A DNA stretch of 64,000 nt from Candidatus Limnocylindria bacterium (lineage in GTDB: Bacteria; Acidobacteriota; Terriglobia; Acidiferrales; UBA7541): contig DATHIB010000164.1 in assembly GCA_035490055.1 (NCBI GenBank), forward strand, positions 29,380 through 93,379, given 5' to 3'. Numbering within the stretch: the first letter of the stretch is position 1; each line of letters opens with the position of its first letter. Below, piece after piece: positions 35,150 to 48,835 of this stretch. A model generated the notes under the pieces. It was not told where the DNA came from. It did not search any database and worked only from the letters and a program-made list of their open reading frames with translations. Both the position numbers and the translations under genes were made by a program.

Positions 35150-35165
35150 TGGTACGCTGCATGCT
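35150..35165 (+). promoter_or_regulatory. sigma54-type box for the nucleotide-sugar/ABC operon
   Basis: TGGTACGCTGCATGCT, near-canonical TGGCACG-N4-TTGCT, ~160 bp before 35328. Confidence 0.55.
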
Positions 35166-35327: not shown

Positions 35328-36389
35328 ATGCGGATACTTATCACGGGTCATAAAGGCTATATCGGAACGGTGATGGCGCCGCTGCTGGCGGATGCCGGGC
35401 ACGAAGTCGCCGGACTGGACAGCGATCTCTTCGAGAAATGCACATTTGGAGAGGCCCCGCGGGAGTTTCCTTCGGTACGAAAAGACCTGCGTGATGTTCA
35501 GGCTGCGGACCTGAAGGGATTCGACGCTGTGATTCACCTGGCGGGGCTCTCGAACGATCCGCTGGGCAACCTGAATCCGAACTTGACGTACGACATCAAT
35601 TACCACGCCTCGGTGCGGCTCGCGCGGCTTGCAAAGGAAGTTGGGGTCGAGCGCTACTTGTTTTCCTCATCCTGCAGCACGTATGGCGCGGCGGGCGACA
35701 AGATTCTGGATGAGACGGCGGAATTCAATCCAGTCACGCCCTATGGGCGCTCGAAGGTGCTGGTGGAACAGGAAGTGTCGCAACTGGCGAGTGCGGAATT
35801 CAGCCCGGTGTTTCTGCGCAACGCGACGGCGTACGGTGTGTCGCCGCGCTTGCGGTTTGACCTCGTGCTGAACAACTTGACGGCGTGGGCGCTGACGACG
35901 GGCCGCGTGTTCATCAAGAGCGATGGGACGCCGTGGCGGCCGATCGTGCATATCGAAGACATCTCTAGCGCATTTCTGGCAGCGCTCGAAGCGCCGCGCG
36001 AGCTGATTCACAATCAAGCCTTCAACGTGGGCCGCAGCGAAGAGAATTACCAGATCCGCGACCTGGCCGAGATCGTGAAGGAAACGGTTCCGGGCTGCAC
36101 GATTGAGTTTGCGGCGGATGCGGGTCCAGACAAGCGCTGTTACCGCGCTGATTTCTCCCGCATTGCCAGGACGCTGCCGGCATTTCAGCCGAAGTGGGAC
36201 GCCCGGCGCGGCGCGCGCGAACTTTACGAGGCCTACAAGAAGGTGGACCTGCGCGTCGAGGACTTCGAAGGTGCGCGCTACAAGCGCATCGACCATATTC
36301 AAGGATTGCTGGCATCGAGACGCTTGAATGCGGACCTGCGCTGGCAGGCTGTGGAAACCGAACACGTGCTGCAAGCGAAGAATTCCTGA
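35328..36389 (+). CDS. NAD-dependent epimerase/dehydratase (extended SDR)
   Basis: TGHKGYIG (GxxGxxG), SSCSTYG, YGRSK (YxxxK). Confidence 0.9.
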   Translation: MRILITGHKGYIGTVMAPLLADAGHEVAGLDSDLFEKCTFGEAPREFPSVRKDLRDVQAADLKGFDAVIHLAGLSNDPLGNLNPNLTYDINYHASVRLARLAKEVGVERYLFSSSCSTYGAAGDKILDETAEFNPVTPYGRSKVLVEQEVSQLASAEFSPVFLRNATAYGVSPRLRFDLVLNNLTAWALTTGRVFIKSDGTPWRPIVHIEDISSAFLAALEAPRELIHNQAFNVGRSEENYQIRDLAEIVKETVPGCTIEFAADAGPDKRCYRADFSRIARTLPAFQPKWDARRGARELYEAYKKVDLRVEDFEGARYKRIDHIQGLLASRRLNADLRWQAVETEHVLQAKNS

Positions 36390-36417
36390 AGTGCCCTCGA
36401 CGAGCGGCTGGTGAGAT

Positions 36418-36948
36418 TTGATTTTTACGGAGACTAAGCTGGCCGGCGCATTCCTCATCGAACTGGAACGACGCACGGACCGCCGCGGTTTTTTCGCCCG
36501 GACATTTTGCCAGAAGGAATTCGAGGCATACGGCCTGAATACCCAAGTAGTGCAGTGCAACGTTTCCTTCAACAAGCGGAAAGGCACGCTGCGAGGAATG
36601 CATTACCAGGCAGCGCCGTTCGCGGAGGCGAAGCTGGTGCGGTGCGCTTCGGGGTCAATCTATGACGTCATCATCGACTTGCGGCCTGCCTCGCCGACGT
36701 TCAAGCAGTATTTCGCGGTGGAACTCTCCGCGGAAAACCGCAGGATGCTGTACATCCCGGAAGCTTTTGCACACGGGTTTCAAACATTGCAGGACGACAC
36801 CGAAGTTTTCTACCAGATGGCGCAGCAATATTCGGCGGAACATGCGCGAGGCGCGCGCTGGAACGATCCAGCTTTCGGAATTGAATGGCCTGAGGGCGAG
36901 CGGATTATCATCGATCGAGATCAAAACTATCCCGACTTCGTTTCATGA
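36418..36948 (+). CDS. rfbC: NDP-4-keto-6-deoxyhexose 3,5-epimerase
   Basis: DRRGFFAR, GTLRGMHYQ, LYIPEAFAHGFQTL, ARWNDP. Confidence 0.92.
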   Translation: MIFTETKLAGAFLIELERRTDRRGFFARTFCQKEFEAYGLNTQVVQCNVSFNKRKGTLRGMHYQAAPFAEAKLVRCASGSIYDVIIDLRPASPTFKQYFAVELSAENRRMLYIPEAFAHGFQTLQDDTEVFYQMAQQYSAEHARGARWNDPAFGIEWPEGERIIIDRDQNYPDFVS

Positions 36949-36964
36949 GAGCGGCCAGGAAATC

Positions 36965-38302
36965 TTGAATCTAAGCGAACTCCAAAGCGGTTTAGATCCC
37001 CTGGCTGAGGGCCAAGCGATGTACAGCTTGATCTCCGAGCTCTATCCCATCTGCCGCAGCATCACCGGCAATGGCCTCCGGCAGAGCCTCCGGCTGCTCC
37101 AGCGGCAAATCCCCCTTGAGCTGCGAGAAGTTCCCACCGGCACGCTGGTGTTTGATTGGAGTGTGCCAAAAGAATGGAATATCCGCGATGCCTATGTGAA
37201 AAACTCCCGAGGCGAGCGGGTCATAGATTTCCAGAAGTCGAATTTGCACGTCGTCAACTACAGCGTTCCCGTCCGCGAGCGGATGCCGCTGTCTGAATTG
37301 AAAAAGCACTTGTTCACGCTCCCCGCTCATCCCCAATGGATTCCTTACCGGACTTCCTACTACAAGGAGACCTGGGGATTCTGCCTTTCCGAACGGCAGC
37401 TGACGGAGCTGAAAGACGAGGAGTACGAAGTCTGCATCGACTCCAGCTTGGAAGACGGTCAATTGACCTACGGCGAGTGCTACTTGCCGGGAGAGACGCA
37501 CGATGAATTTTTGATTTCCTGCCACGCGTGCCACCCGTCACTGTGCAATGACAATCTTTCCGGGATAGCGCTTGCCGTTTCGCTCGCGCGCTTCCTGGGA
37601 TCCGCGCCGCGCCGCTATTCCTATCGCTTTCTTTTCATTCCAGGCACGATCGGCGCCATCACGTGGCTCGCGAAAAATGAAGACAAGATTTCCCACATCA
37701 AGCACGGACTGGTGCTAACGGGCGTTGGCGATGCCGGACCGCTGCACTATAAGAAGAGCCGCAAGGGCACGGCAGACATCGATCGGGCGGCGGCCCATGT
37801 ACTCCAGCGTTTTGGACAACCGCACCAGGTTCTGGATTTCTCGCCCTACGGCTACGACGAGCGCCAATACTGCTCGCCGGGAATCAATCTCCCTGTTGGA
37901 AGGCTGTCACGCACTCCCCACGGTACCTTTCCGGAATACCACACTTCCGCCGACAACTTGGAATTCGTCCACCCCGATAAACTGGGTGAAGCATTGATGG
38001 TTAGCCTGGAAATTTTGTCAGTCCTGGAGAATAACGGAACTTTTGTGAATGTAAACCCCAAGTGCGAGCCGCAGCTTGGAAAGCGAGGCCTGTACCGCAT
38101 GGTTGGAGGCTCCGCCGACGCCGGACTGAGCGAAATGGCGATGCTGTGGGTTCTCAATCAATCCGACGGGAAAAACTCGCTGCTCGATATCGCGGAGCGG
38201 GCGGGAATGAGTTTCCATGTCATTCGCAGGGCTGCCGAAGCCCTTCAGGAACACCAATTGTTGCGGAAAGATTTCAAGTCTGTGCCGCAGGCCGCACGTT
38301 GA
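36965..38302 (+). CDS. DUF4910 / DUF2172 M28-like protein with C-terminal wHTH
   Basis: ELYPICRSITGNG, HACHPSLCNDNLSG, GYDERQYCSPG, EYHTSAD. TTG start at 36965 (ATG 37019 alternative); the 36662 extension overlaps rfbC. Confidence 0.82.
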   Translation: MNLSELQSGLDPLAEGQAMYSLISELYPICRSITGNGLRQSLRLLQRQIPLELREVPTGTLVFDWSVPKEWNIRDAYVKNSRGERVIDFQKSNLHVVNYSVPVRERMPLSELKKHLFTLPAHPQWIPYRTSYYKETWGFCLSERQLTELKDEEYEVCIDSSLEDGQLTYGECYLPGETHDEFLISCHACHPSLCNDNLSGIALAVSLARFLGSAPRRYSYRFLFIPGTIGAITWLAKNEDKISHIKHGLVLTGVGDAGPLHYKKSRKGTADIDRAAAHVLQRFGQPHQVLDFSPYGYDERQYCSPGINLPVGRLSRTPHGTFPEYHTSADNLEFVHPDKLGEALMVSLEILSVLENNGTFVNVNPKCEPQLGKRGLYRMVGGSADAGLSEMAMLWVLNQSDGKNSLLDIAERAGMSFHVIRRAAEALQEHQLLRKDFKSVPQAAR

Positions 38303-38323
38303 GCTTGCGGAAAGGATAACGTC

Positions 38324-39247
38324 ATGAATTCGATCATCATCGATGCGCCCATCCCAGATGACAAACGTCGCGAACTACTCTATCGCGGCCAATTGCTCGT
38401 CTATTCCCCCACGCCGAGCTCTCTCGCGCTCGTTGATTTTGCCCGCAAGATGGCCGAGGAGGCGTTCCACCCCCTCGACCCGGAAACCGCTCAATTCCAT
38501 TTGGCGGTGGAGCGTTACGCGGCAATCCTTTCCGAGCTTAAGCCAAAATTCATTCATGCTGCGGAATCCAAGAAATGTATCCAAGGGATGTTGCGCGAAC
38601 TCGGCGCCGATCCGGAGAAGACGTACTTTGACGTGCCGCGGATGCGCTCTTCCACAAGCGATGATTTCCTTACGTCCGGTATTGCCTACGCTTTCCACCC
38701 GCACCGCGACACGTGGTATTCCGCGCCGATGTGCCAGATCAATTGGTGGATGCCGATTTATCCGATCGTTTCGGAGAATGCGATGGCTTTTCATCCACAC
38801 TATTGGAGCCAGGCGGTACGCAACGGTTCCGCCGAATACAACTACGCCGAGTGGAACCGCACCAGCCGGCAGAACGCGGCTCAATTCCTCAAGCAAGACA
38901 CTCGAAAGCAACCCAAGCCAGAAGAGCCGATGGAACTCGATCCTCAAATCCGAGTGATCGCACCGCCGGGTGGAGTTCTGCTTTTCTCCGCCGCCCAAAT
39001 GCATTCCAGCGTGCCCAATAATTCGGGCCGCACGCGGTTCAGCATCGATTTTCGTACCGTCAACGTGGATGACGTTGTCGCACGGCGGGGCGCTCCGAAC
39101 GTGGACTCGGCTTGCACGGGAACGACGATGGGCGATTACCTGCGCGGGACAGACTTGGCTCACTTGCCGGAAAAATATTTTGAGTTGTACGAGACGCAGC
39201 CGCCGTTCGCGAAGCCGGAGGAATTCGAGACCGCGACGTCGGCATAG
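38324..39247 (+). CDS. Putative Fe(II)/2-oxoglutarate-dependent oxygenase
   Basis: HxD (HRDTWY), distal His (QMHSS) and RFSIDFR give the DSBH facial-triad pattern. Confidence 0.6.
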   Translation: MNSIIIDAPIPDDKRRELLYRGQLLVYSPTPSSLALVDFARKMAEEAFHPLDPETAQFHLAVERYAAILSELKPKFIHAAESKKCIQGMLRELGADPEKTYFDVPRMRSSTSDDFLTSGIAYAFHPHRDTWYSAPMCQINWWMPIYPIVSENAMAFHPHYWSQAVRNGSAEYNYAEWNRTSRQNAAQFLKQDTRKQPKPEEPMELDPQIRVIAPPGGVLLFSAAQMHSSVPNNSGRTRFSIDFRTVNVDDVVARRGAPNVDSACTGTTMGDYLRGTDLAHLPEKYFELYETQPPFAKPEEFETATSA

Positions 39248-39289
39248 CACCGTCGAGGTCATGCCTTTACTCAAATTCGACCAGGACTA

Positions 39290-40537
39290 TTGATGACTCC
39301 AGAGAACCAATCCGGATGCAGATTTTGCGGGACGAAGCTCGAACACACGTTCGTGGATCTGGGAATGTCGCCGTTGTGCGAGAGCTTTCTTCCCGGGGAC
39401 CACTTGAATCAGATGGAAGCGTTCTATCCGCTGCACGCATATGTTTGCGGTAAGTGTTTTCTGGTACAGCTGGAAGCATACGTCACGCCGGAACACATCT
39501 TCAGCGACTACGCATATTTTTCGTCATATTCGGACTCGTGGCTGGCGCATGCAAAGAAGTACACGGGCGGGATGATGGAGCAGTTTGGAATCGGCGAAAA
39601 GAGTTTTGTGGTGGAACTGGCCAGCAACGACGGATATCTGCTGCAGTACTTTGTCGAGAAGCGTGTGCCGGTGCTGGGAATTGAACCAGCGGCAAATGTT
39701 GCGGCGGTGGCGGTGAAGAAGGGTGTGCCGTCGCTAGTGAAGTTTTTTGGGAGAGAGACGGCCCGGGAGCTGGCGGTAGCGGGAAAACAGGCGGATTTGC
39801 TGCTCGGGAATAATGTTCTCGCGCAAGTGCCGGACCTGAACGACTTTGTGGCGGGTATGAAAATCCTGCTGAAGCCGTCGGGCGTGATCACCATGGAGTT
39901 TCCCCACCTGCAGCGGCTGATGGAAGAAAACCAGTTCGACACGATTTATCACGAACATTTTTCCTACTTTTCCTTTTTGACGGTGGAGAAGATCTTCGCA
40001 GAGCATGGAATCACGCTCTTCGACGTTGAGGAACTGCCGACGCATGGCGGATCGCTGCGGATTTACGGGCGGCATGCAGAAGATTCATCGAAACCGGTGG
40101 CGGAGCGAGTCAGGGAGTTGCGTAGGCGAGAAGAAGCGGCCGGAACCACGCGTCTGGAGACGTACTCGCGTTTTGCGGAGCAGGTGAAGGAGACGAAGCG
40201 GAAGCTGCTGGAGTTTTTGATTTCCGCGAAACGCAATGGGAAAAAGATCGCGGGGTACGGAGCGCCAGGGAAGGGCAATACTCTGTTGAATTACTGCGCC
40301 ATCCGCACGGATTTCCTGGATTACACTGTGGACAGAAATCCTTACAAGCACGGCAGATTCTTGCCGGGGACCCATGTTCCGATTTTTCCGCCGGACCGCA
40401 TCCGGGAGACGAAGCCGGACTTTCTGCTGATTCTTCCCTGGAATTTGAAGGACGAAATCATCAAGCAGAACGCGTTTATTCGCGAGTGGGGCGGGAAGTT
40501 CGTCGTGCCGATTCCGGAGGTGCAAGTTCATGAGTGA
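39290..40537 (+). CDS. SAM-dependent NDP-sugar C-methyltransferase
   Basis: Zn motifs CRFCG and CGKC, VELASNDG, HEHFSYFS, HGGSLR, YGAPGKGNTLLNY. Confidence 0.9.
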   Translation: MMTPENQSGCRFCGTKLEHTFVDLGMSPLCESFLPGDHLNQMEAFYPLHAYVCGKCFLVQLEAYVTPEHIFSDYAYFSSYSDSWLAHAKKYTGGMMEQFGIGEKSFVVELASNDGYLLQYFVEKRVPVLGIEPAANVAAVAVKKGVPSLVKFFGRETARELAVAGKQADLLLGNNVLAQVPDLNDFVAGMKILLKPSGVITMEFPHLQRLMEENQFDTIYHEHFSYFSFLTVEKIFAEHGITLFDVEELPTHGGSLRIYGRHAEDSSKPVAERVRELRRREEAAGTTRLETYSRFAEQVKETKRKLLEFLISAKRNGKKIAGYGAPGKGNTLLNYCAIRTDFLDYTVDRNPYKHGRFLPGTHVPIFPPDRIRETKPDFLLILPWNLKDEIIKQNAFIREWGGKFVVPIPEVQVHE

Positions 40538-40705
40538 TGCACCGCTGGCAGAAATCGTGAGCGCCGGGGAAGTTCCTGGCCCGTGTGCGCACCTCGTTTT
40601 CGAATCGGGACAGGGAACGAAGAACCAGATCAAGATCTATCGCTGGTATGGAAACAGCGCGTCCAGAGTTCTCGCGAGTTCTCAAGCGGTGAAGGAGTAA
40701 CGCAG

Positions 40706-41572
40706 ATGAAAGTGGTCATTTTTTGCGGCGGACTTGGGATGCGCTTGCGGGAATATGCCGACAATGTTCCCAAGCCAATGGTGCCCATTGGCTACCGGCC
40801 AGTGCTGTGGCACGTCATGAAGTACTACGCGCACTTTGGTCACAAGGATTTTATTTTGTGCCTGGGTTATCGCGCGGACGCCATCAAGCAGTACTTCCTC
40901 CATTACGACGAGTGCGTGTCCAACGATTTTTCGCTCTCAAAGGGCGGCAAGGACCTGCAACTCTTCAACAGCGATATTCACGATTGGAACATCACGTTCG
41001 CTGAAACCGGTATGCATTCGAACATTGGGCAGCGGCTCAAAGCCGTGGAAAAATACCTCGTGGGCGAGGAGGCATTCCTAGCGAATTATGCCGACGGCCT
41101 TACCGACCTGGAGCTTCCGAGACTCATCGAGTTTTCAAAGCAACACGACAAGATTGCCACGTTTGTTTCCGCGAAGCCGAATTTGACTTATCACCTTGTT
41201 TCTGCCGGGCCGGACGGTGTGGTGAGCGATATCAAATCCATTCGCGATGCTGAACTTCGTATCAACAGCGGATATTTTGTTCTCAAGCAGGATATTTTCA
41301 AGCATATGCGCGATGGAGAAGAACTGGTCCTCGAGCCTTTCAGGCGATTGATCCAGGAAAAGCAGTTGATGGCGTACGAACACAACGGCTTTTACGCCTC
41401 CATGGATACATTCAAGGACAAGCAGCAATTGGATGATTTGTATGCGCGGGGAGACGCGCCCTGGGTGGTTTGGAAATCCAACTCCCCGCAAGGTGCCGCT
41501 CCGGCGCCGGAGACCGTGAAAACCTCCGCTGGTGATTCTGCCGGCTACGTCGTGAGTCGTCGTGATGGTTGA
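40706..41572 (+). CDS. rfbF: Glucose-1-phosphate cytidylyltransferase
   Basis: MKVVIFCGGLGMRL, PKPMVPIG, NYADGL, MDTFKD. ATG 40706 follows an AAGGAG RBS. Confidence 0.88.
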   Translation: MKVVIFCGGLGMRLREYADNVPKPMVPIGYRPVLWHVMKYYAHFGHKDFILCLGYRADAIKQYFLHYDECVSNDFSLSKGGKDLQLFNSDIHDWNITFAETGMHSNIGQRLKAVEKYLVGEEAFLANYADGLTDLELPRLIEFSKQHDKIATFVSAKPNLTYHLVSAGPDGVVSDIKSIRDAELRINSGYFVLKQDIFKHMRDGEELVLEPFRRLIQEKQLMAYEHNGFYASMDTFKDKQQLDDLYARGDAPWVVWKSNSPQGAAPAPETVKTSAGDSAGYVVSRRDG

Positions 41573-42218
41573 GTTTCAACTGGGTTCTGCCCGGCAACCC
41601 CTGCGCCGAATCCTGTGCCTGGGTTCGCACTGCGATGACATTGAGATTGGGTGCGGCGGAACGATTCTGCACCTCCTGCGTGAACGTCGGGAAGTCGAAA
41701 TCTACTGGCTGGTATTCAGCTCGACTCCAGTTCGAAAGAAGGAAGCTCTGCGAGCGGCGAATCTCTTTCTTGCGTCTGCAAAGAAAAAGAGAATTGTGAT
41801 TCGCAGCTATCGCGACAGTTTTTTCCCTTCGCTTCACGCGCGGATCAAAGTGGAGTTCGAAAAACTTAAAAAAGAGTTTGTTCCCGATCTCATTCTGACG
41901 CACTACCGCCACGATCTGCATCAGGATCATCGAGTGGTTTGTGAACTGACTTGGAACACGTTTCGCAGCCATCTGATCTTGGAATACGAGATTCCCAAGT
42001 ACGATGGCGACCTGGGAATCCCGAACTTCTTTGTCGCACTGGATCGCGCCACTTGTGAACGGAAGTCGAAGCATATTCTGGACGCGTTTGCGTCTCAGCG
42101 GGCAAAGCAGTGGTTCACTGCGGACACCTTTATGGGTTTACAGCGAATCCGGGGCATCGAAGCGAATAGCCCAGGCGGATACGCGGAAGGTTTTCATTGT
42201 CGAAAGCTAGTATGGTGA
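41565..42218 (+). CDS. PIG-L/LmbE-family deacetylase
   Basis: LGSHCDDIEIGCGG (HxDD), THYRHDLHQDH. Confidence 0.87.
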   Translation: MVEFQLGSARQPLRRILCLGSHCDDIEIGCGGTILHLLRERREVEIYWLVFSSTPVRKKEALRAANLFLASAKKKRIVIRSYRDSFFPSLHARIKVEFEKLKKEFVPDLILTHYRHDLHQDHRVVCELTWNTFRSHLILEYEIPKYDGDLGIPNFFVALDRATCERKSKHILDAFASQRAKQWFTADTFMGLQRIRGIEANSPGGYAEGFHCRKLVW

Positions 42219-43060
42219 TACCGGATCAGAAATCGCTCCCGTCCATTCCGCAAGCTCGCGAAGAAATCACCGCCACAAAAGCGGAATGGATGTCGGAACT
42301 CTGGCATTTTCGCGAGCTGCTCTATTTCCTCGCGTGGCGTGACGTGAAGGTGCGGTATAAACAAGCCGCTTTCGGCGCTGCGTGGGCCATCATCCAGCCG
42401 CTTTTTACGATGCTGATTTTCACGTTCTTTTTTGGCCGGATGGCGAATATTCCCAGCGGCGGCATCCCCTATCCTCTTTTTTTCTACACCACGCTCGTTC
42501 CTTGGACATATTTTGCAGGAACGCTCGGCCAGGGCGGAAATAGTCTCGTGAGCAACGCTCCATTAATCACGAAGATCTATTTTCCGCGAATTCTGCTGCC
42601 TGCCTCTTCGGCATTGAGCAGCTTGTTGGACTTCGGTGTCGGCTCGTCCTTCCTGGTTGTAATGATGGCGTATTACCGGGTGAAACCCAGCTGGACGCTC
42701 GTGTTCTGGCCGCTGGCCGTTCTGGAAATGCTGCTGGTCACCCTGGGGATTAGCATGTGGTTCGCAGCGCTCAATGTCCGCTATCGCGACATCAAGCACG
42801 TCATTCCCTTCATGATCCAGCTCGGGCTCTGGGTGAGTCCTGTTCTTTACCCGGTGAGTTATCTCTCTCCCCGTTGGCGGCCGTTGCTTGCTCTCAATCC
42901 GCTTTCCGCCGTTATGGAAGGATTCCGCGCCTGTATTTTCCCCAGTCATCAGCTGGACTGGAAATTGATGGCAACTTCGCTGGGCACTTCGCTTCTTTTC
43001 TTCGTGATCGGAGTTCTCTATTTCCGCAAGGCGGAGCGGACCTTTGCCGACATTATTTGA
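42212..43060 (+). CDS. wzm: ABC-2 polysaccharide exporter permease
   Basis: RDVKVRYKQ, WAIIQPL, ITKIYFPR, VRYRDI, ERTFADII. Confidence 0.92.
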   Translation: MVIPDQKSLPSIPQAREEITATKAEWMSELWHFRELLYFLAWRDVKVRYKQAAFGAAWAIIQPLFTMLIFTFFFGRMANIPSGGIPYPLFFYTTLVPWTYFAGTLGQGGNSLVSNAPLITKIYFPRILLPASSALSSLLDFGVGSSFLVVMMAYYRVKPSWTLVFWPLAVLEMLLVTLGISMWFAALNVRYRDIKHVIPFMIQLGLWVSPVLYPVSYLSPRWRPLLALNPLSAVMEGFRACIFPSHQLDWKLMATSLGTSLLFFVIGVLYFRKAERTFADII

Positions 43061-43167
43061 TTTGGTTTTAAAGAAGGAAAGCTGCCGATGATAATTCAAC
43101 GCGCACACCGGGCAATCGAACAAGGAGAATGCACGCGCCCTCCTGCCAGAATGATCAAGGGACTCGC

Positions 43168-44493
43168 ATGAACGATTCGATTCGCGTCGAACATCTTTCG
43201 AAGGAGTACCGCCTGGGGAAAATGAGCCAGGAGACGATGCTCCGCGAGCGCCTGGCCAGCTTCCTGAAGAATCCCTTCACCAGGGAATCCGCTATTGCCG
43301 AGACGTTATGGGCGCTGCGAGATGTTACGTTCTCCATCAAACAAGGAGAAGTCGTCGGCATAATCGGCCGCAACGGAGCCGGTAAGAGCACCTTGTTGAA
43401 AGTGCTTTCCAAGATCACCTATCCGACCTCCGGCCGGGTAAAGGTTCGCGGCCGGGTCGCTTCCTTACTCGAGGTTGGCACTGGCTTTCACGAAGAGCTC
43501 ACCGGAAGAGAAAACATCTTTCTGAACGGCTCTATTCTTGGGATGAAGCAGAAAGAGGTCGAAGCCAAGCTCGACCAGATTATTGAATTCGCCGGAGTGG
43601 AACGTTTCATTGATACTCCCATCAAACGCTATTCCTCCGGCATGCGATTGCGGCTGGGTTTTGCAGTTGCTGCGCACTTGGAACCTGACGTTCTGATCGT
43701 CGATGAGGTGTTGGCCGTCGGTGACGCGGGCTTCCAGAAAAAATGCCTGAGCGTCATGGAAGATCTGCGAAAAGGCGGTAGAACCGTCTTGTTCGTCTCG
43801 CACAACATGGCGGCCGTGGAAAATCTTTGCACGCGCGGCATCTGGATCGACAGTGGCGGTGTCCGGCAAGACGGGCCGACCCGCCAGGTCATCGAATCGT
43901 ATTTGTCATCTTTCGCGGAGACTCAGCAGAGCGCTTCGGACTTGAGCGTGGTGGAATCCCGCCACGGCAACGGCGATATTCGCTACACGGGCATCTCGTT
44001 TCTCGGTCTGGATGGGCAGCCACAATTGGTTACGCGAAGCGGCGACAGCATCCGGTTGCGATTCCACTTTCATGCCAAGAAAACAATTCCGTACCCAAGT
44101 TTTGGATTCCGGCTTCTGACCGAGATGGGGACCCTCGTCACCGATACCAGCACCTGGCATCACAGCCTGGACATTCCTGAAATTGCTCCAGGAGAGGGCT
44201 ATCTAGACCTGGAGATCGATTTCCTGAATCTCCTCCCCGGCCGTTACGATTTGTCGCTCTGGATCACCGGCCTTAGCCAGATCGTCTACGACGGCGTTGA
44301 ACATTGCGCAAAGCTCGAGGTTGAATTGGCGAATGTCTACCGCTCCGGGAGACAGCTCGATTCGCGGTCCGGCATCGTCTACTTTCCTCAGAAATGGAAT
44401 TTGCAGGGACTGCACAGCGAGCGGCTGAGCCGCGCGGACGAGCCGTCTGAAGAGGAGCGCGAAAAGTGGAGCGCGCACCGAACACAACTCTAG
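43168..44493 (+). CDS. wzt: ABC polysaccharide exporter ATPase with C-terminal carbohydrate-binding domain (Wzt-C)
   Basis: GRNGAGKS, YSSGM, LIVDE, HNM, followed by a ~190-aa beta-sandwich extension. Confidence 0.92.
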   Translation: MNDSIRVEHLSKEYRLGKMSQETMLRERLASFLKNPFTRESAIAETLWALRDVTFSIKQGEVVGIIGRNGAGKSTLLKVLSKITYPTSGRVKVRGRVASLLEVGTGFHEELTGRENIFLNGSILGMKQKEVEAKLDQIIEFAGVERFIDTPIKRYSSGMRLRLGFAVAAHLEPDVLIVDEVLAVGDAGFQKKCLSVMEDLRKGGRTVLFVSHNMAAVENLCTRGIWIDSGGVRQDGPTRQVIESYLSSFAETQQSASDLSVVESRHGNGDIRYTGISFLGLDGQPQLVTRSGDSIRLRFHFHAKKTIPYPSFGFRLLTEMGTLVTDTSTWHHSLDIPEIAPGEGYLDLEIDFLNLLPGRYDLSLWITGLSQIVYDGVEHCAKLEVELANVYRSGRQLDSRSGIVYFPQKWNLQGLHSERLSRADEPSEEEREKWSAHRTQL

Positions 44494-45587
44494 AGAGCGA
44501 AAGACCGCTGGATCTCATTACCATGTCCTCCTATTCCATTGCCGATTTCTACGCTCACATACTGAGCCCAGCGCAACAGCCGCTCGTGAGTGTGATCACG
44601 CCGGTCTATAATGGCGAGGAATTCCTGCCGGAATGCATCGACAGTGTGCTTGCGCAGACCTATCAGAATTGGGACTACACCATCGTCAATAACCGCAGCA
44701 CGGATCGCACACTCGAGATCGCGAAGAGCTACGCGGCCAAAGATTTGCGGATTCGAGTCCGCGACAATCGCGATTTTTTGCCCATCATTCAGAATCACAA
44801 TCACGCGATCAGCCAGATTTCTCGCCTGAGCAAGTACTGCAAAGTCGTACTGGCCGATGACTGGCTCTTTCCTGAATGCATCATGAAAATGGTGGCTCTT
44901 GCCGAAGCGCACCCATCCGTCGGTCTCGTCGGGGCGTATGGCCTCTACGGCGACGGCATGCACGTGATGTGGCGCGGTCTGCCTTTCCCGCGGACCGTGG
45001 TGACTGGCAGGGAAGTCTCCCGATTGCGACTGCTCAACGGTCGCTATGTTTTCGGCGCACCGACCGCGACGCTCGTTCGTTCGGATTTTGTTCGCAAAGA
45101 GAAAAAGTTCTACGACGAGTCCAATCTTCATGCGGATTCTACAGTTTGTTTCAGAATTCTTCAGGAATCTGATTTTGGCTTCGTTCACCAGTTGCTGACG
45201 TTTACCAGAACGCAGGGCGAATCCAATACGACCTTCGCGGAGCAAATGAACAGTATTCAGTTGTCCTTTCTGACGGAACTCGTTCAGTACGGCCCATCCA
45301 GTCTCGACAAGAACGAGTATGAGGATCGTATGCGGGTCCGCCTGCGCGAGTACTACCAGGTTCTTGCGGAAGGACTCTTGCAGTTGCGCGGCAAGAACTA
45401 TTTTGAATTTCACAAAAACTGGCTGCGCAACCTGGAAATGCCTTTGAGCTGGAGCAGGCTCCTCCGCGGATTCTGCATGGCCGCCTGGAACGGCATATCG
45501 CACCCGGTAGCAGCCGTGAGAAGTCTTGCCCGCTGGTGGGGCAAAGCAACGGCCTCCAAGAAGACCAACACCGGGGCTCGGACATAA
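44466..45587 (+). CDS. Glycosyltransferase family 2
   Basis: VSVITPVYNG, NNRSTD, LADD. Start is GTG 44466 or ATG 44523. Confidence 0.88.
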   Translation: MERAPNTTLESERPLDLITMSSYSIADFYAHILSPAQQPLVSVITPVYNGEEFLPECIDSVLAQTYQNWDYTIVNNRSTDRTLEIAKSYAAKDLRIRVRDNRDFLPIIQNHNHAISQISRLSKYCKVVLADDWLFPECIMKMVALAEAHPSVGLVGAYGLYGDGMHVMWRGLPFPRTVVTGREVSRLRLLNGRYVFGAPTATLVRSDFVRKEKKFYDESNLHADSTVCFRILQESDFGFVHQLLTFTRTQGESNTTFAEQMNSIQLSFLTELVQYGPSSLDKNEYEDRMRVRLREYYQVLAEGLLQLRGKNYFEFHKNWLRNLEMPLSWSRLLRGFCMAAWNGISHPVAAVRSLARWWGKATASKKTNTGART

Positions 45588-45590
45588 GCC

Positions 45591-46553
45591 ATGGACTTGA
45601 CGGTCATCATCTGCACCTGGAATCGCTCGAAGTCCCTTGCTGTCGCTTTGAATAGTCTCAAGGCTTCCGTTGTGCCCGAAGGGCTCGAATGGGAAGTGCT
45701 GGTCGTTGACAACAATTCGAAGGACGATACCCGTGCGGTTTGTGAATCCTTTATCGCGAAAAACTCGCACCGGTTCCGGTACTTTTTTCATGGCACGCAG
45801 GGCAAGACCAACGCCTTGAATGCCGGCATTCGGGAAGCCCGCAGCGAGATTCTCGCTCTGACGGATGACGATCTGACCGTCGATCATCACTGGGTCGCCG
45901 AAATGTACGATGCGTTCCAGAAATATGATTGCGCGGCGGTTGGCGGAAAAATCATCCCTGTGTGGAGCTGCAAGAAGCCTTCCTGGATTGTCTTCGACGG
46001 TCCCTACCGTCACCCTGCCTACGGTGGGATCGTGAATTTTGACAAGGGCGATGTGCCGTGCCAACTCACGGCGACGGCGATCGGCGCAAACATGGGCCTT
46101 CGCAAATCCATTTTTAAAAAGTATGGTCCCTACCGGACCGACCTCAACCGAATCAATGACCTGTTGGGTGGAGAGGACACTGAGTATTGCCGGAGACTTA
46201 TGCACGCGGGCGAACGCCTGATGTACGCTTCCAAGGCTGTGGTTTACCACCCGGTGGAAGAGTACCGCACCACGCGAAAGTATTTTCGGTCCATGGCGTT
46301 TCACTATGGCCGGTGGTCTATTCTCGTCGAGGGAGTTCCGGACGGCGCGAAATGCTATTTCGGCGTTCCGCGTTACCTGTTCCCGATCGCTCTGCGGTTT
46401 CTCGGGAAGTGGATGTTTTCGCTGGGGGAGCAACGCCGTTCTTTTTACAGGCTGGAGTTATTTCAGACCTTTGGGAGAATGGCCGAAAGCAAGAAATGGT
46501 TGCGGAATCGTCAAATGCAACAACACCTTCAGGGACTCCATCCGGCAAAATGA
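45591..46553 (+). CDS. Glycosyltransferase family 2
   Basis: VIICTWNRS, VVDNNSKD, LTDDD, GGEDTE. Confidence 0.9.
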   Translation: MDLTVIICTWNRSKSLAVALNSLKASVVPEGLEWEVLVVDNNSKDDTRAVCESFIAKNSHRFRYFFHGTQGKTNALNAGIREARSEILALTDDDLTVDHHWVAEMYDAFQKYDCAAVGGKIIPVWSCKKPSWIVFDGPYRHPAYGGIVNFDKGDVPCQLTATAIGANMGLRKSIFKKYGPYRTDLNRINDLLGGEDTEYCRRLMHAGERLMYASKAVVYHPVEEYRTTRKYFRSMAFHYGRWSILVEGVPDGAKCYFGVPRYLFPIALRFLGKWMFSLGEQRRSFYRLELFQTFGRMAESKKWLRNRQMQQHLQGLHPAK

Positions 46554-46615
46554 TTGTAGCAAGCGAAAGAACAGGGAAAGGCGAAAGTCAGCACCACGAT
46601 TCGCAAAGTTTCAGG

Positions 46616-47515
46616 ATGAAGCTCAGCATCATCATCGCCAGCTACAATCGAGCCGATAGCTTGCTCAAGTTTCTGCGCGGACTTTCGCATCAGGTTGTGC
46701 CGGACGGCGTGGATTGGGAGGTTGTGATCGTCGATAACAATTCCTCGGACGGGACAAAAAGTGCGATTGTGCCGTTCGTCCAAGAAACCCCGCCACGATG
46801 CATTTACCTGCTGGAAAGCCGGCAAGGAAAGTCAATCGCGCTCAATGCCGGGCTTCGCGCAGCCACCGGCGAAATTCTGGTTTTTACCGATGACGATTGC
46901 ATACCCGATCCGAAGTGGCTGGCCACGATTGCGCGGGAATTCGCCTCCGACCCCTCCCTGGGCGTGCTCGGAGGGAGAGTCGAGCTTTTTGATAAACAAG
47001 ATCGGCCCATAACCATCCGGAGCTTCCCCGAGAGGACGCCCATTGAATCGCGCGATCAGCTTTTCTTGTTCCTGATTGGCGCCAACATGTCGATTCGCCG
47101 GAAGATTTTTGATGTGGTGGGAGATTTCGATCCCTTCCTTGGTCCTGGATCAAGAATCGGCGCGGTGATGGAAGATCTCGATTTTCTCTATCGAGTCTTC
47201 CGGGAAAAATTCAAGATCATCTATTCGCCCGACGTCCTTGTCTATCACAATCATGGGCGAACCACCGACGCTCAAATTCAGGCTCTGAATCACCGGTACG
47301 TTGTGGGCCGCGGGGCGTTCTACTGCAAGCACATCCTGGGAGGCGACCGGAAAGTACTCAAAATGGCCTACTGGGAGGTCTCCTCTTTAACCAAAGGCAT
47401 GCTGAAGGATTTTTTCGCAGGCAGGAAGTTCCGGGAGCAGCGCAGCCTTCTCTGGGCACTATTGGTGGGCGCCGGTGGCCGTCTCGCGTGGAATCCCAAG
47501 GTCCGCCGGATTTGA
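46616..47515 (+). CDS. Glycosyltransferase family 2
   Basis: MKLSIIIASYNR, IVDNNSSD, FTDDD, EDLDF. Start at ATG 46616; the 46187 extension overlaps the previous gene. Confidence 0.9.
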   Translation: MKLSIIIASYNRADSLLKFLRGLSHQVVPDGVDWEVVIVDNNSSDGTKSAIVPFVQETPPRCIYLLESRQGKSIALNAGLRAATGEILVFTDDDCIPDPKWLATIAREFASDPSLGVLGGRVELFDKQDRPITIRSFPERTPIESRDQLFLFLIGANMSIRRKIFDVVGDFDPFLGPGSRIGAVMEDLDFLYRVFREKFKIIYSPDVLVYHNHGRTTDAQIQALNHRYVVGRGAFYCKHILGGDRKVLKMAYWEVSSLTKGMLKDFFAGRKFREQRSLLWALLVGAGGRLAWNPKVRRI

Positions 47516-47563
47516 ACGCTCTTCTTTTTTTAAGGACGATGAGAGGAAGGATCGCGAGATAGG

Positions 47564-48835
47564 ATGATCTCCATGCAGGTTGACGTAGCTCCTCCAAAAA
47601 AAACGGCCAGCAAGCCCGTGCTGGAAGACGTCGGCATCCTTGCGCTTGTTCCTGATCACTGGAACCCGCGCTGGATGGTGCGCCATCACATCATGGCGCG
47701 CCTGGCGAGCTACTTTCATATGGTCTGGGTAAATCCCGCGCACCACTGGCGGGATACTCTCAAGAGCCGGCCAGAACCATCACAAACATCCGGCATGGCC
47801 CAATATCCGGGGTTTGCCGAATATACTCCGGAATTCTGGCTTCCGGACTTCTACCGGCCAGCCTGGCTGGCGCGATTTACGTTGCAGCAGCGCCTCTTGC
47901 AGGCTAGCCGCATCCTTCGGGACCGTGGCTGCCAGAAGATCATTCTCTATCTCTGGCGTCCCGAATTTGAACCCGTCCTTCGGATGATTCCTTTCGATCT
48001 GAGCTGTTATCACCTCGAAGATGAATATTCTTTTTCGCGCGTGGAGTGCCCCATAGATCCTGTCGAAGCCCGATTGCTCGCTGCCGTGGATCACGTATTC
48101 ATCCTTTCACCTGCTCTCTACGAGAAAAAGGGAAAAATCAATCCACAAACCACCTATCTTCCCGGCGGCGTTGATTTTGAAGCCTATTCGCGGCCGTTCG
48201 ACGAACCCAAGGATCTTGCGCCCATTCCTCATCCCCGCGTCGGGTACGTGGGATCCCTCAAATGGCAAATCGATTGGGACCTGCTTCTCAAGCTGACTTG
48301 CGAGCATCCGGAATGGTCATTCGTGTTGGTGGGACCCGCAAGCCCGCATCCGGAAATTGACGGCGCTCTTCAGGAACTCATGGGACGCCGCAACGTTCAT
48401 TTCCTCGGAGGAAAGCCTTCAGCTGAGATGATGGCGTACCCGCAGCATTTCGATGTGTGCATCATGCCTTACGGGGATAATGACTACACCAAGTACATTT
48501 ATCCGCTCAAATTGCATGAATATCTGGCGAGCGGCAAGCCACTCGTGGGAACGCCAATCGCGTCGCTCGCGACCCTTGGGGACATCGTGTTGCTTCCAAG
48601 AAGCGCCGAACAATGGTCCTCCATGCTCGCACAAGCCCTAAGCCGGGCGGAAAACACGGAAGAGCGGCGCGTAGCCAGGCAGAATTTCGCGCGGCAGCAT
48701 GATTGGTCGAATCTCACGCGGCAGATCGCCGGCACAATGGCCCGGCGGCTCGGCCCTGCGTGCTCCGCTCGCGTTGAACGTCATTTTCAAGAGAGTACTG
48801 GAAAGACGGTCCCGGAAGAGACTGTCCAGTTGTGA
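47564..48835 (+). CDS. GT-B glycosyltransferase (TuaH-like)
   Basis: GGVDFEAY, GYVGSLKWQID, IYPLKLHEYLASGKP. Confidence 0.85.
   Translation: MISMQVDVAPPKKTASKPVLEDVGILALVPDHWNPRWMVRHHIMARLASYFHMVWVNPAHHWRDTLKSRPEPSQTSGMAQYPGFAEYTPEFWLPDFYRPAWLARFTLQQRLLQASRILRDRGCQKIILYLWRPEFEPVLRMIPFDLSCYHLEDEYSFSRVECPIDPVEARLLAAVDHVFILSPALYEKKGKINPQTTYLPGGVDFEAYSRPFDEPKDLAPIPHPRVGYVGSLKWQIDWDLLLKLTCEHPEWSFVLVGPASPHPEIDGALQELMGRRNVHFLGGKPSAEMMAYPQHFDVCIMPYGDNDYTKYIYPLKLHEYLASGKPLVGTPIASLATLGDIVLLPRSAEQWSSMLAQALSRAENTEERRVARQNFARQHDWSNLTRQIAGTMARRLGPACSARVERHFQESTGKTVPEETVQL

Follow-up and report, generated by a model that had tools for sequence, protein, structure and literature searches.

How does a sugar cassette that carries an RmlC-like epimerase, a C-methyltransferase and only one SDR build its product? 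This question is raised by seven genes in the window (the whole 64,000-nucleotide stretch of DNA that was analysed), which belongs to the 96%-complete genome of a soil acidobacterium of the Acidoferrales (Acidobacteriota). Profile searches recovered every gene of the run that a preliminary description of this DNA had listed, tightly packed on the + strand with intergenic spacings of -8 to 168 bp (Table 1). The cassette is the head of an ABC-transporter glycan operon and runs directly into wzm/wzt and four glycosyltransferase genes. Wzm and Wzt match galactan/teichoic-type exporters in NCBIfam, and together they are predicted to be the ABC exporter of the glycan. The 790-bp gap in front of the cassette contains a putative sigma-54-like box, which departs from TGGCAC-N5-TTGC at two positions and went unreported in a scan that allowed one mismatch.

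Table 1. Features of the operon in the window and the evidence for their assignment.
Feature	Length	Position	Strand	Evidence
Putative weak sigma-54-like box (TGGTAC-N5-ATGC), possible operon promoter		35150..35164	+	By eye in the sequence
SDR1, extended SDR	353 aa	35328..36389	+	Pfam Epimerase 151 bits
RmlC-like 3,5-epimerase of 4-keto sugars	176 aa	36418..36948	+	PF00908 222 bits; TIGR01221 174 bits (equivalog cut-off 155.75)
DUF4910/DUF2172/HTH_47 protein		36965..38302 (most likely; start codon in frame closest downstream of the RmlC stop)	+	Pfam 377, 142 and 99 bits
PhyH-like Fe(II)/2-oxoglutarate oxygenase	307 aa	38324..39247	+	Sub-threshold Pfam/NCBIfam; fold and triad
TylC3/TcaB9-type NDP-hexose C-methyltransferase	415 aa	39290..40537	+	Methyltransf_13 90 bits; Methyltransf_14 230 bits
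NTase*, RfbF paralogue	288 aa	40706..41572 (most likely)	+	TIGR02623 215 bits; PDB 1TZF
PIG-L/LmbE-type zinc deacetylase (predicted)	217 aa	41565..42218 (start 41562/41565)	+	PF02585 55.7 bits (gathering cut-off 28.2)
Wzm permease		42212..43060	+	ABC2_membrane 60 bits
Wzt ATPase with Wzt_C domain		43129..44493	+	ABC_tran 85 bits; Wzt_C 70 bits
Three GT2 and one GT4 glycosyltransferases, end of operon		44466..48835	+	Pfam Glycos_transf_2, Glyco_trans_1_4

The preliminary description had seen here a cassette for tailoring CDP-type nucleotide sugars, with a C-methyltransferase and three enzymes without an assigned role, whose pathway the standard enzymes fail to describe, and our analysis bears this out. 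We suggest, with a probability of roughly 0.55, that the product of the cassette is a C-methyl-branched hexose, activated with CDP and destined for the glycan that the same operon assembles and exports, and that no dehydratase would be required to make it.

The textbook route, in which RfbF, a 4,6-dehydratase, an epimerase and a C3-methyltransferase lead to a 6-deoxysugar, was also implied for this cassette, but it does not fit the SDR. 4,6-Dehydratases carry an acid/base pair right after the catalytic Thr/Ser, T-D-K or, in RmlB, T-D-E. At this active-site position SDR1 reads S-S-C-S-T-Y-G, and an Asp/Glu or Asp/Lys pair following the catalytic Ser/Thr was absent in all 37 SDR1 orthologues, among which TGxxGxxG, SSCSxYG and YxxxK (with Y139 and K143) are invariant. 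SDR1 scored 25 bits against TIGR02622 (CDP-glucose 4,6-dehydratase, RfbG; equivalog cut-off 278) and 30 bits against TIGR01181 (cut-off 365). A profile search of the genome brought neither RfbG nor RmlB nor Gmd above its equivalog cut-off, the best TIGR02622 match anywhere being 70 bits, and RfbG was also absent from Nitrospira cassettes that have a canonical RfbF. The top PDB match of SDR1 was 6VO6, the non-dehydrating enzyme Cj1427 (E 1.9e-32 for a full-length alignment, residues 2-308), which ranked above all GalE entries, although the identity is only ~32%. On these motifs and scores we propose that SDR1 is a Cj1427-like NDP-hexose C4-dehydrogenase rather than a 4,6-dehydratase, and that the chemistry of the cassette most likely starts with C4 oxidation instead of the textbook dehydration. 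In some relatives there is a further SDR, which has an S-L-E-E motif and could dehydrate.

Cj1427 binds NADH tightly, and re-oxidation by 2-oxoglutarate yields L-2-hydroxyglutarate (PMC10680097). A gene for L-2-hydroxyglutarate oxidase is present in eight related cassettes (NF008726 620 and 320 bits, cut-off 299), and in five loci (one from Legionellales, two from cyanobacteria and two from Nitrospira) it occupies the position between the genes for RfbF and the SDR1 orthologue, directly upstream of the latter. This adjacency argues for net oxidation by SDR1, and the textbook route leaves it without explanation. The window's own cassette contains no such gene; a sub-threshold homologue (247 bits) is found elsewhere in the genome. 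Recycling of the NADH would enable one SDR both to open and to close the pathway. It had been correctly remarked that only one SDR is present, and a single SDR-like gene proved to be the usual state, found in about 25 of 40 complete cassettes.

SDR1 gave GalE-like NCBIfam matches (114 bits), and in Nitrospira its orthologue is as good a match to the UDP-GlcA 4-epimerase MoeE5 as to Cj1427. SDR1 might therefore do no more than epimerise C4 or carry out a terminal 4-keto reduction, while the 4-keto sugar for the methyltransferase would come from elsewhere in the cell. We consider this very unlikely: an RfbG, RmlB or Gmd equivalog that could provide the 4-keto sugar is missing from the genome, the cassette has its own nucleotidyltransferase and moves between genomes as a unit, and the position of the oxidase gene speaks for net oxidation.

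Features of the epimerase and the methyltransferase speak for the textbook route. The RmlC-like protein exceeds the equivalog cut-off for dTDP-4-dehydrorhamnose epimerases. The methyltransferase contains the Methyltransf_13 Cys4 ribbon, the SAM domain and Methyltransf_14 (Pfam), and matches PDB 4RV9 (E 8.6e-86) and TcaB9 (E 7.7e-63). C10, C13, C53 and C56, together with Y220, E222 and H223, are kept in 40-45 of 45 cassette orthologues, and Y220-H-E222-H223 is equivalent to the catalytic set Tyr222/Glu224/His225 of TcaB9; the counterpart of TcaB9 His181 is Q179 in the window (Q in 15 and H in 30 of the 45 orthologues). Judging from the names of their PDB entries, the characterised TylC3/TcaB9-type enzymes all take 4-keto-6-deoxy substrates, and C-methyl 6-deoxysugars occur in bacterial O-antigens. 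If RfbF made CDP-glucose and the single SDR were a 4,6-dehydratase that perhaps carried out the closing 4-keto reduction as well, RmlC and the methyltransferase would give a CDP-6-deoxy-3-C-methyl-hexose, which the three remaining enzymes would decorate. A DUF4910 cassette of Kuenenia listed in the 2014 paper discussed below is annotated rfbF-rfbG (PMC4000134), suggesting that some cassettes may use true dehydration. For the window this reading is nonetheless unlikely in view of SDR1, and the nucleotidyltransferase also stands against it.

The name RfbF given to that nucleotidyltransferase in the preliminary description was right only as to the family. NTase* is an RfbF paralogue (E 1.5e-54 to PDB 1TZF) that retains the N-terminal GGxGxR and KP motifs, but its score on TIGR02623 (glucose-1-phosphate cytidylyltransferase, RfbF) misses the equivalog cut-off of 300, and at the E-K-P positions of the F-x-E-K-P sugar-phosphate motif it has K-S-I. 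Each of these three residues is present in 18-19 of 20 canonical RfbF sequences, and the positions are variable across 26 type-A NTase sequences. The NTases of the Nitrospira cassettes reach 381-389 bits on TIGR02623; a bona fide glucose-1-phosphate cytidylyltransferase in sister cassettes supports the CDP handle.

The genes for NTase* and PIG-L overlap by 8 bp, by which the latter is probably translationally coupled to the former. PIG-L has the invariant zinc/catalytic motifs H23-x-D25-D26 and D118-x-H120-Q-D-H123; across 26 sequences, H23, D25, D26, H120 and H123 never vary. A type-A NTase gene nearly always has a PIG-L gene behind it: the two are neighbours in 30 of 36 loci, against 1 of 24 for canonical RfbF (odds ratio 115, p = 5e-10). 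Such a tightly coupled pair, nearly exclusive of canonical RfbF, with the sugar/phosphate-binding residues lost from one partner and a complete deacetylase site in the other, would suit a pathway in which NTase* activates an N-acetylhexosamine-1-phosphate with CTP and PIG-L deacetylates it. The product would be a 2-amino-3-C-methyl-hexose with O6, on whose amine the DUF4910 protein would act as an amidase or transacylase. To our knowledge, all characterised PIG-L/LmbE members are N-deacetylases or amidases; we know of no precedent, however, for CDP-hexosamines. Furthermore, no acyltransferase is conserved in the cassette, and the downstream enzymes are 60-69% alike between PIG-L and RfbF cassettes, equal to the similarity inside each type, which argues that both work on the same substrate. 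An amide-directed role for DUF4910 was suggested by Das et al. (PMC4000134). We regard the hexosamine as a tentative possibility; it refines the hexose reading and does not exclude it.

The Fe(II)/2-oxoglutarate oxygenase stayed below the Pfam gathering thresholds (17.9 vs 22 bits for PF05721 and 20.4 vs 27 bits for PF13759), although some homologues carry a precomputed PF05721 match, and a sequence search of the PDB with it gave zero matches. Its AF2 model (pLDDT 92.6) gave 314 Foldseek matches in the PDB at E<=0.001, and the best 50 of them were almost all Fe/2OG dioxygenases (probability 1.0, TM 0.4-0.5). H127-R-D129, H227, R238 and S240 show little or no variation: in one alignment of the family (A1, 43 sequences) H127 and D129 are conserved in at least 90% and R128 in all, and in a second (A2) H127, D129, H227 and R238 are all invariant. 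From model and motifs together we are confident in predicting a PhyH-like Fe/2OG double-stranded beta-helix fold with an intact HxD...H triad and an Arg 2OG anchor. The family is largely unannotated (1,603 clusters at 50% identity), and its members are 60-75% identical across >10 phyla. The gene was found at at least 590 loci among 185,579 species genomes, with carriers that include Nostoc, Frankia, Kribbella, Nitrospira, Bradyrhizobium, Acidobacteriota and candidate phyla, and a search of 30 close relatives found it in none of them.

Among 80 loci with an oxygenase homologue, drawn from >10 phyla, most have these genes again in its surroundings, though not in a fixed order. The arrangement is thus not due to chance; the cassette is common, spread between phyla and, to judge from these comparisons, horizontally mobile.

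The DUF4910 protein matches PDB 3K9T (CA_C2195) with E 4e-166 and has the same three-domain architecture (DUF4910, DUF2172 and HTH_47). Its residues H190, S192, D196, P226 and H326 are the same in all 45 sequences compared and correspond to H189, S191, D195, P225 and H324 of CA_C2195 (PMC4000134). It is thus predicted to be an M28-like protein with a single zinc site and His/Asp/His ligands, in which Ser and Pro replace the catalytic Asp and Glu of M28.

Assembled from homology, motifs and gene context, the dehydratase-free route would run as follows. NTase* and the coupled PIG-L would supply a CDP-hexose, possibly of the hexosamine type, in place of the CDP-glucose that canonical RfbF presumably provides in sister cassettes. 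SDR1 would oxidise C4 in the manner of Cj1427, keeping O6, with 2-oxoglutarate or the finished 4-keto sugar serving as oxidant for its bound NADH. The RmlC-like enzyme, by its family, would epimerise C3 and/or C5 of the 4-keto sugar, and the methyltransferase, whose family is clear, would probably methylate C3. As an optional addition, the oxygenase may oxidise a C-H bond of the CDP-sugar, for example in the new methyl branch, and the single-zinc DUF4910 protein would perform a further step. The product would keep its 6-OH and thus would not be a 6-deoxysugar. Fully specified, the proposal is a previously undescribed, redox-neutral and dehydratase-free pathway whose CDP-linked product, a hexose or hexosamine with a 6-OH, bears a 3-C-methyl (or 3-C-hydroxymethyl) branch. 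It would combine a ping-pong SDR that has the finished 4-keto sugar or 2-oxoglutarate as oxidant, a PhyH-type oxygenase and a single-zinc M28-like enzyme that work on the nucleotide sugar, and an EKP-less RfbF paralogue that with PIG-L replaces CDP-glucose synthesis; this complete combination is doubtful.

If the dehydratase-free reading is true, the ping-pong mechanism of Cj1427 would be a general entry to 4-keto sugars that keep O6 rather than a Campylobacter oddity, the puzzle of the missing reductase and the single SDR would be explained, and a first functional frame would become available for DUF4910 and for a large oxygenase family that has no name. We know of no characterised PhyH-type oxygenase that acts on nucleotide sugars; such an activity would be new chemistry for this family, as it would be for single-zinc M28-like enzymes.

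The link between DUF4910 and sugar-modification cassettes is not new: Das et al. drew it bioinformatically in 2014 (PMC4000134). The available text and supplementary tables of that purely bioinformatic work place the same protein, with the same single-zinc ligands, beside a nucleotidyltransferase, an SDR, RmlC, a C-methyltransferase, LmbE and export genes. The window thus adds one oxygenase-bearing example to a cassette that was already known, and it is of value for the mechanism rather than for the locus itself. As far as the available text and supplementary files go, they do not contain the words 'oxygenase' or 'dioxygenase', and leave unmentioned the 2OG oxygenase family, the Cj1427-like SDR, the link to L-2-hydroxyglutarate oxidase and the split between NTase*/PIG-L and RfbF (PMC4000134).

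Among PhyH-clan enzymes, the sugar-moiety oxygenases EvdO1/EvdO2 (orthoester synthases) and SnoN/SnoK, as well as PtlH, SptF and EctD, share with the cassette oxygenase the fold, the HxD...H triad and the Arg/Ser 2OG anchor, but identity is only 10-17% (TM 0.4-0.5) and the likely substrate of the cassette enzyme is a nucleotide sugar. The dTDP-sugar pathways of TylC3, TcaB9, KijD1 and MycC3 have the same three-domain methyltransferase (Cys4 ribbon, Tyr/Glu/His; E 1e-62 to 1e-85) and an RmlC-type epimerase. They serve secondary metabolites, whereas the cassette has a CDP context and serves a surface glycan; the window lacks the 4,6-dehydratase, the 2,3- or 3-dehydratase and the aminotransferase, and has Q179 in place of TcaB9 His181.

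The capsular heptose pathway of Campylobacter jejuni comprises the C4-dehydrogenase Cj1427, the RmlC-like C3/C5-epimerase Cj1430 and the C4-reductase Cj1428. The cassette differs from it in using CDP, not GDP, and a hexose, not a heptose, in usually having no separate C4-reductase, and in its additional C-methyltransferase, oxygenase, DUF4910 protein and PIG-L. The two would nevertheless share a common logic, in which C4 is oxidised with no 6-deoxygenation and an RmlC-type enzyme then epimerises the 4-keto sugar, and the by-product of Cj1427 matches the L-2-hydroxyglutarate oxidase of the sister cassettes.

Open reading frame listing and profile searches confirmed the seven-gene cassette of the preliminary description, with all genes lying co-directionally at 35328-42218 on the forward strand and separated by -8 to 168 bp (see the table). 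Upstream is an exopolysaccharide locus with a priming transferase, Wza, a chain-length regulator, a FemAB-like protein, AsnB paralogues and polysaccharide deacetylases, and an unbroken run of wzm, wzt (with a Wzt_C domain), three GT2 genes and one GT4 gene follows downstream. Close homologues carry the names Candidatus Acidoferrum and Acidoferrales, which makes the host an acidobacterium. No sigma-54 site was detected ahead of the cassette in a strict scan; TGGTACGCTGCATGC at window positions 35150-35164, 164 bp ahead of the SDR1 start, is similar to a sigma-54 -24/-12 element but has two mismatches to it.

Cassette genes in the window, and extra genes recurring in related loci (L-numbers). 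Partner counts refer to the 55 loci having at least 8 kb on both sides of the oxygenase.
Feature	Position	Strand	Evidence or remark	Partner of oxygenase (loci)
Extended SDR (SDR1)	35328-36389	+	profile search	33/55
RmlC-like epimerase	36418-36948	+	TIGR01221 174 bits, over its cut-off	40/55
DUF4910+DUF2172+HTH_47 protein	36965-38302	+	TTG at 36965 most likely start	37/55
307-aa oxygenase-like protein	38324-39247	+	2OG-oxygenase profile matches all sub-threshold	
C-methyltransferase	39290-40537	+	Methyltransf_13/14	42/55
RfbF-like nucleotidyltransferase (NTase)	40706-41572	+	ATG at 40706 most likely start	46/55
PIG-L protein	41565-42218	+	profile search	29/55
L-2-hydroxyglutarate oxidase	L026:1380-2594; L028:5792-7027; L037:1643-2857; L061:2758-3975; L078:4445-5641			
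GSA-aminomutase-like aminotransferase	L025:10789-12267; L060:10962-12302; 16 further loci		NF004856 >730 bits	

Several concordant lines of sequence evidence indicate that SDR1, the single extended SDR of the cassette, is not a dehydratase. Its scores were 25 bits for the CDP-glucose 4,6-dehydratase profile (cut-off 278) and 30 bits for that of dTDP-glucose dehydratase. 4,6-Dehydratases rely on an Asp/Glu or Asp/Lys pair; no such pair was found in the SDR1 active-site stretch of 37 orthologues, in which SSCSxYG is invariant and accompanied by YxxxK. The best solved relative, 6VO6/6VO8 (E 1.9e-32, residues 2-308 aligned), ranks above every GalE. PMC10680097 describes 6VO6 as Cj1427, a Campylobacter jejuni C4-dehydrogenase that converts GDP-heptose to a 4-keto sugar with no dehydration; its tightly bound NADH is re-oxidised by 2-oxoglutarate, giving L-2-hydroxyglutarate, and the next enzyme in its pathway is an RmlC-like C3/C5-epimerase.

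We searched the window's own genome, which is 96% complete, and found nothing above the curated cut-offs for RfbG (best 70 bits) or RmlB (best 160 of 365 bits), while a Gmd search gave zero matches. Because no equivalog-level RmlB, RfbG or Gmd is present, the organism may make no classical 6-deoxyhexose at all, and the supply of a 4-keto-6-deoxy sugar from elsewhere in the genome was rejected. A second SDR hidden elsewhere was rejected as well, since SDR2, the additional SDR of relatives' cassettes, has no orthologue there (best 29% identity). The preliminary description had cited RfbF, a dehydratase, an epimerase and a C3-methyltransferase as the established route to C-methyl-branched 6-deoxysugars, and had inferred an unusual sugar whose pathway the standard enzymes do not describe. 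This reading is partly supported: the C-methylation cassette with NDP-sugar enzymes stands, but on these scores and absences the implied dehydratase step is not supported. It had also been puzzled by a single SDR. There is indeed one, and this is the normal layout, because about 25 of the 40 cassettes carrying SDR1, methyltransferase and oxygenase hold just one SDR-like ORF. Since Cj1427 is a ping-pong enzyme, reduction of the finished 4-keto sugar by the NADH form of SDR1 would be a natural explanation, and we infer by analogy that the pathway would then be redox-neutral.

Clustering of all neighbouring ORFs of the related loci revealed recurrent extra genes. A gene for L-2-hydroxyglutarate oxidase was present in eight loci (NF008726 620 and 320 bits, cut-off 299), and at the five tabulated positions it fills the interval that separates RfbF from the SDR1 orthologue, 10-15 bp 5' of the latter, in hosts belonging to Legionellales, cyanobacteria and Nitrospira. 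A Cj1427-type reaction leaves a by-product that this oxidase, by analogy, would recycle; we see no alternative reason for its placement, and its adjacency is the strongest support for the C4-dehydrogenase reading of SDR1. The 409-aa 'nucleotidyl sugar oxidoreductase' Chro_0221, in the same position in the Chroococcidiopsis table of PMC4000134, may correspond to this oxidase. A class-III (GSA-aminomutase-like) aminotransferase was found in 18 loci; in about eight of these, including L025, L046 and L060, it stands immediately after the oxygenase, which hints that the oxygenase yields a carbonyl that is transaminated afterwards. In 18 loci the gene after the oxygenase is a second SDR. The window contains none of these three extra genes.

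The nucleotidyltransferases of the cassettes fall into two groups. Type B, the canonical RfbF-like group, is 36-43% identical to the window's enzyme; in the two Nitrospira loci scanned it is a bona fide glucose-1-phosphate cytidylyltransferase (TIGR02623 381-389 bits), and RfbG is absent from both of those cassettes. Type A, to which the window's enzyme belongs, scores 215 bits on TIGR02623. Its N-terminal nucleotide loop is intact, but it no longer has the F-x-E-K-P motif, whose E, K and P are found in 18-19 of 20 canonical RfbF sequences and are replaced by K-S-I in the window. A PIG-L gene lies directly 3' of type A in 30 of 36 loci, compared with 1 of 24 for type B (odds ratio 115, p = 5e-10), and the HxDD and HxxH zinc site of PIG-L is complete. 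This coupling, the motif loss and the intact zinc site together argue that the type-A/PIG-L pair stands in for canonical CDP-glucose synthesis. A hexosamine start, in which N-acetylhexosamine-1-phosphate is activated and then de-acetylated, is attractive but unproven; a point against it is that the downstream enzymes differ across the two cassette types no more than they do inside either one. No publication treating RfbF jointly with LmbE turned up in a literature search.

The C-methyltransferase is of the TylC3/TcaB9/MycC3 type (4RV9, E 8.6e-86). It shares the Cys4 ribbon and the Tyr/Glu/His set with TcaB9, but carries Q179 where TcaB9 has His181; we rejected this substitution as a marker of a new substrate because the position varies inside the cassette family (15 Q, 30 H). 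The DUF4910 protein is very close to CA_C2195 (3K9T, E 4e-166) and retains its unusual single-zinc site. The oxygenase belongs to a distinct family, annotated mostly as 'hypothetical' and in a few cases as 'phytanoyl-CoA dioxygenase family'. A PDB sequence search with it gave zero matches. H127-R-D129, H227 and R238/S240 are invariant or nearly so, and its structural model is confident (pLDDT 92.6); nearly all of the best 50 of 314 structural matches are PhyH-clan Fe/2OG dioxygenases (TM 0.4-0.5, 10-17% identity), and the sugar-modifying EvdO1/O2 and SnoN are among the matches at low TM. A minimal variant in Frankia sp. QA3 (L040:6892-11697) and other Frankia loci consists of an RfbF-like nucleotidyltransferase, DUF4910, an IspD-like cytidylyltransferase, the oxygenase and a classical SDR, and lacks the C-methyltransferase, RmlC and SDR1. 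Because it pairs the oxygenase and DUF4910 with cytidylyltransferases and no methyltransferase, this variant suggests that both proteins recognise CDP-linked substrates in general.

Oxygenase-like proteins form 1,603 clusters at 50% identity in a library of 1.84 billion proteins. Scanning species-representative genomes with a 12-sequence alignment as seed yielded 590 loci or more. In the best 80 of these the oxygenase is 60-75% identical to the window's, and the hosts come from many lineages: Acidobacteriota, cyanobacteria (Nostoc, Calothrix, Scytonema), Actinomycetota (Frankia, Kribbella, Microbispora), Nitrospira including Ca. N. defluvii, Bradyrhizobium, Gemmatimonadota, Bacteroidota, Rokubacteria, Myxococcota, Saccharimonadales, Legionellales and others. 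Tblastn with the window's proteins recovered the same partner genes round the oxygenase in shuffled order. Two metagenomic copies (L009:10996-11967 and L010:8827-9798) have an oxygenase about 80% identical to the window's; there a Wzx flippase replaces Wzm/Wzt, and an FkbM-family methyltransferase and a second SDR are inserted between oxygenase and C-methyltransferase. None of the 30 relatives searched, 18 of them species of the same genus, has the oxygenase. DUF4910 was found in 3 of these 18 congeners, where the arrangement is SDR1-RmlC-DUF4910(-NTase-PIG-L) and the oxygenase is missing. This patchy distribution among congeners and the Wzx/Wzm-Wzt exchange indicate, at the level of gene content, that the cassette is an accessory, horizontally mobile module to which the oxygenase is an optional addition. 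One congener cassette (L102, genome G014, contig C17:93297-94307) looks decayed: a TAA interrupts the DUF4910 reading frame, and the RmlC alignment is split into two segments that lie in different frames and overlap at the DNA level, the pattern a frameshift would leave. SDR1 of this cassette shares 87% identity with the window's.

The full cassette was also found in Bradyrhizobium aeschynomenes 83002 (L076), a photosynthetic Aeschynomene symbiont, and in Bradyrhizobium sp. SSBR45G (L092), where the surrounding Wzx-type locus also encodes GFO/IDH/MocA, a further SDR and AsnB; the former locus also has a priming transferase. An 11-gene 'gdh' operon is required for the bradyrhizose O-antigen of photosynthetic Bradyrhizobium (PMC4743980). 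A link between the cassette and bradyrhizose was not supported: strain 83012 and 'unclassified Bradyrhizobium' were the sole sources of named Bradyrhizobium homologues, with none from ORS278, BTAi1 or ORS285.

Das et al. (2014, PMC4000134) solved the structure of CA_C2195, found the M28 catalytic residues missing, and described a conserved neighbourhood of nucleotidyltransferase, epimerase/dehydratase, methylase and export genes; the supplementary tables list C-methyltransferase, cytidylyltransferase and LmbE as neighbours. As far as could be found, what is new here is the recognition of Cj1427 as the SDR's best solved relative, combined with the linkage to L-2-hydroxyglutarate oxidase; the statistics on how type-A/PIG-L and RfbF divide the cassettes, with the loss of the EKP motif; and, for the oxygenase family, its size, its fold and how patchily it is distributed. 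We regard the roles of DUF4910, PIG-L and the oxygenase, and the final sugar, as hypotheses. The locus adds one more member to a cassette already known from bioinformatics, and the best reading of its predicted pathway is NDP-sugar C-methylation in a Cj1427-like form that uses no dehydratase.
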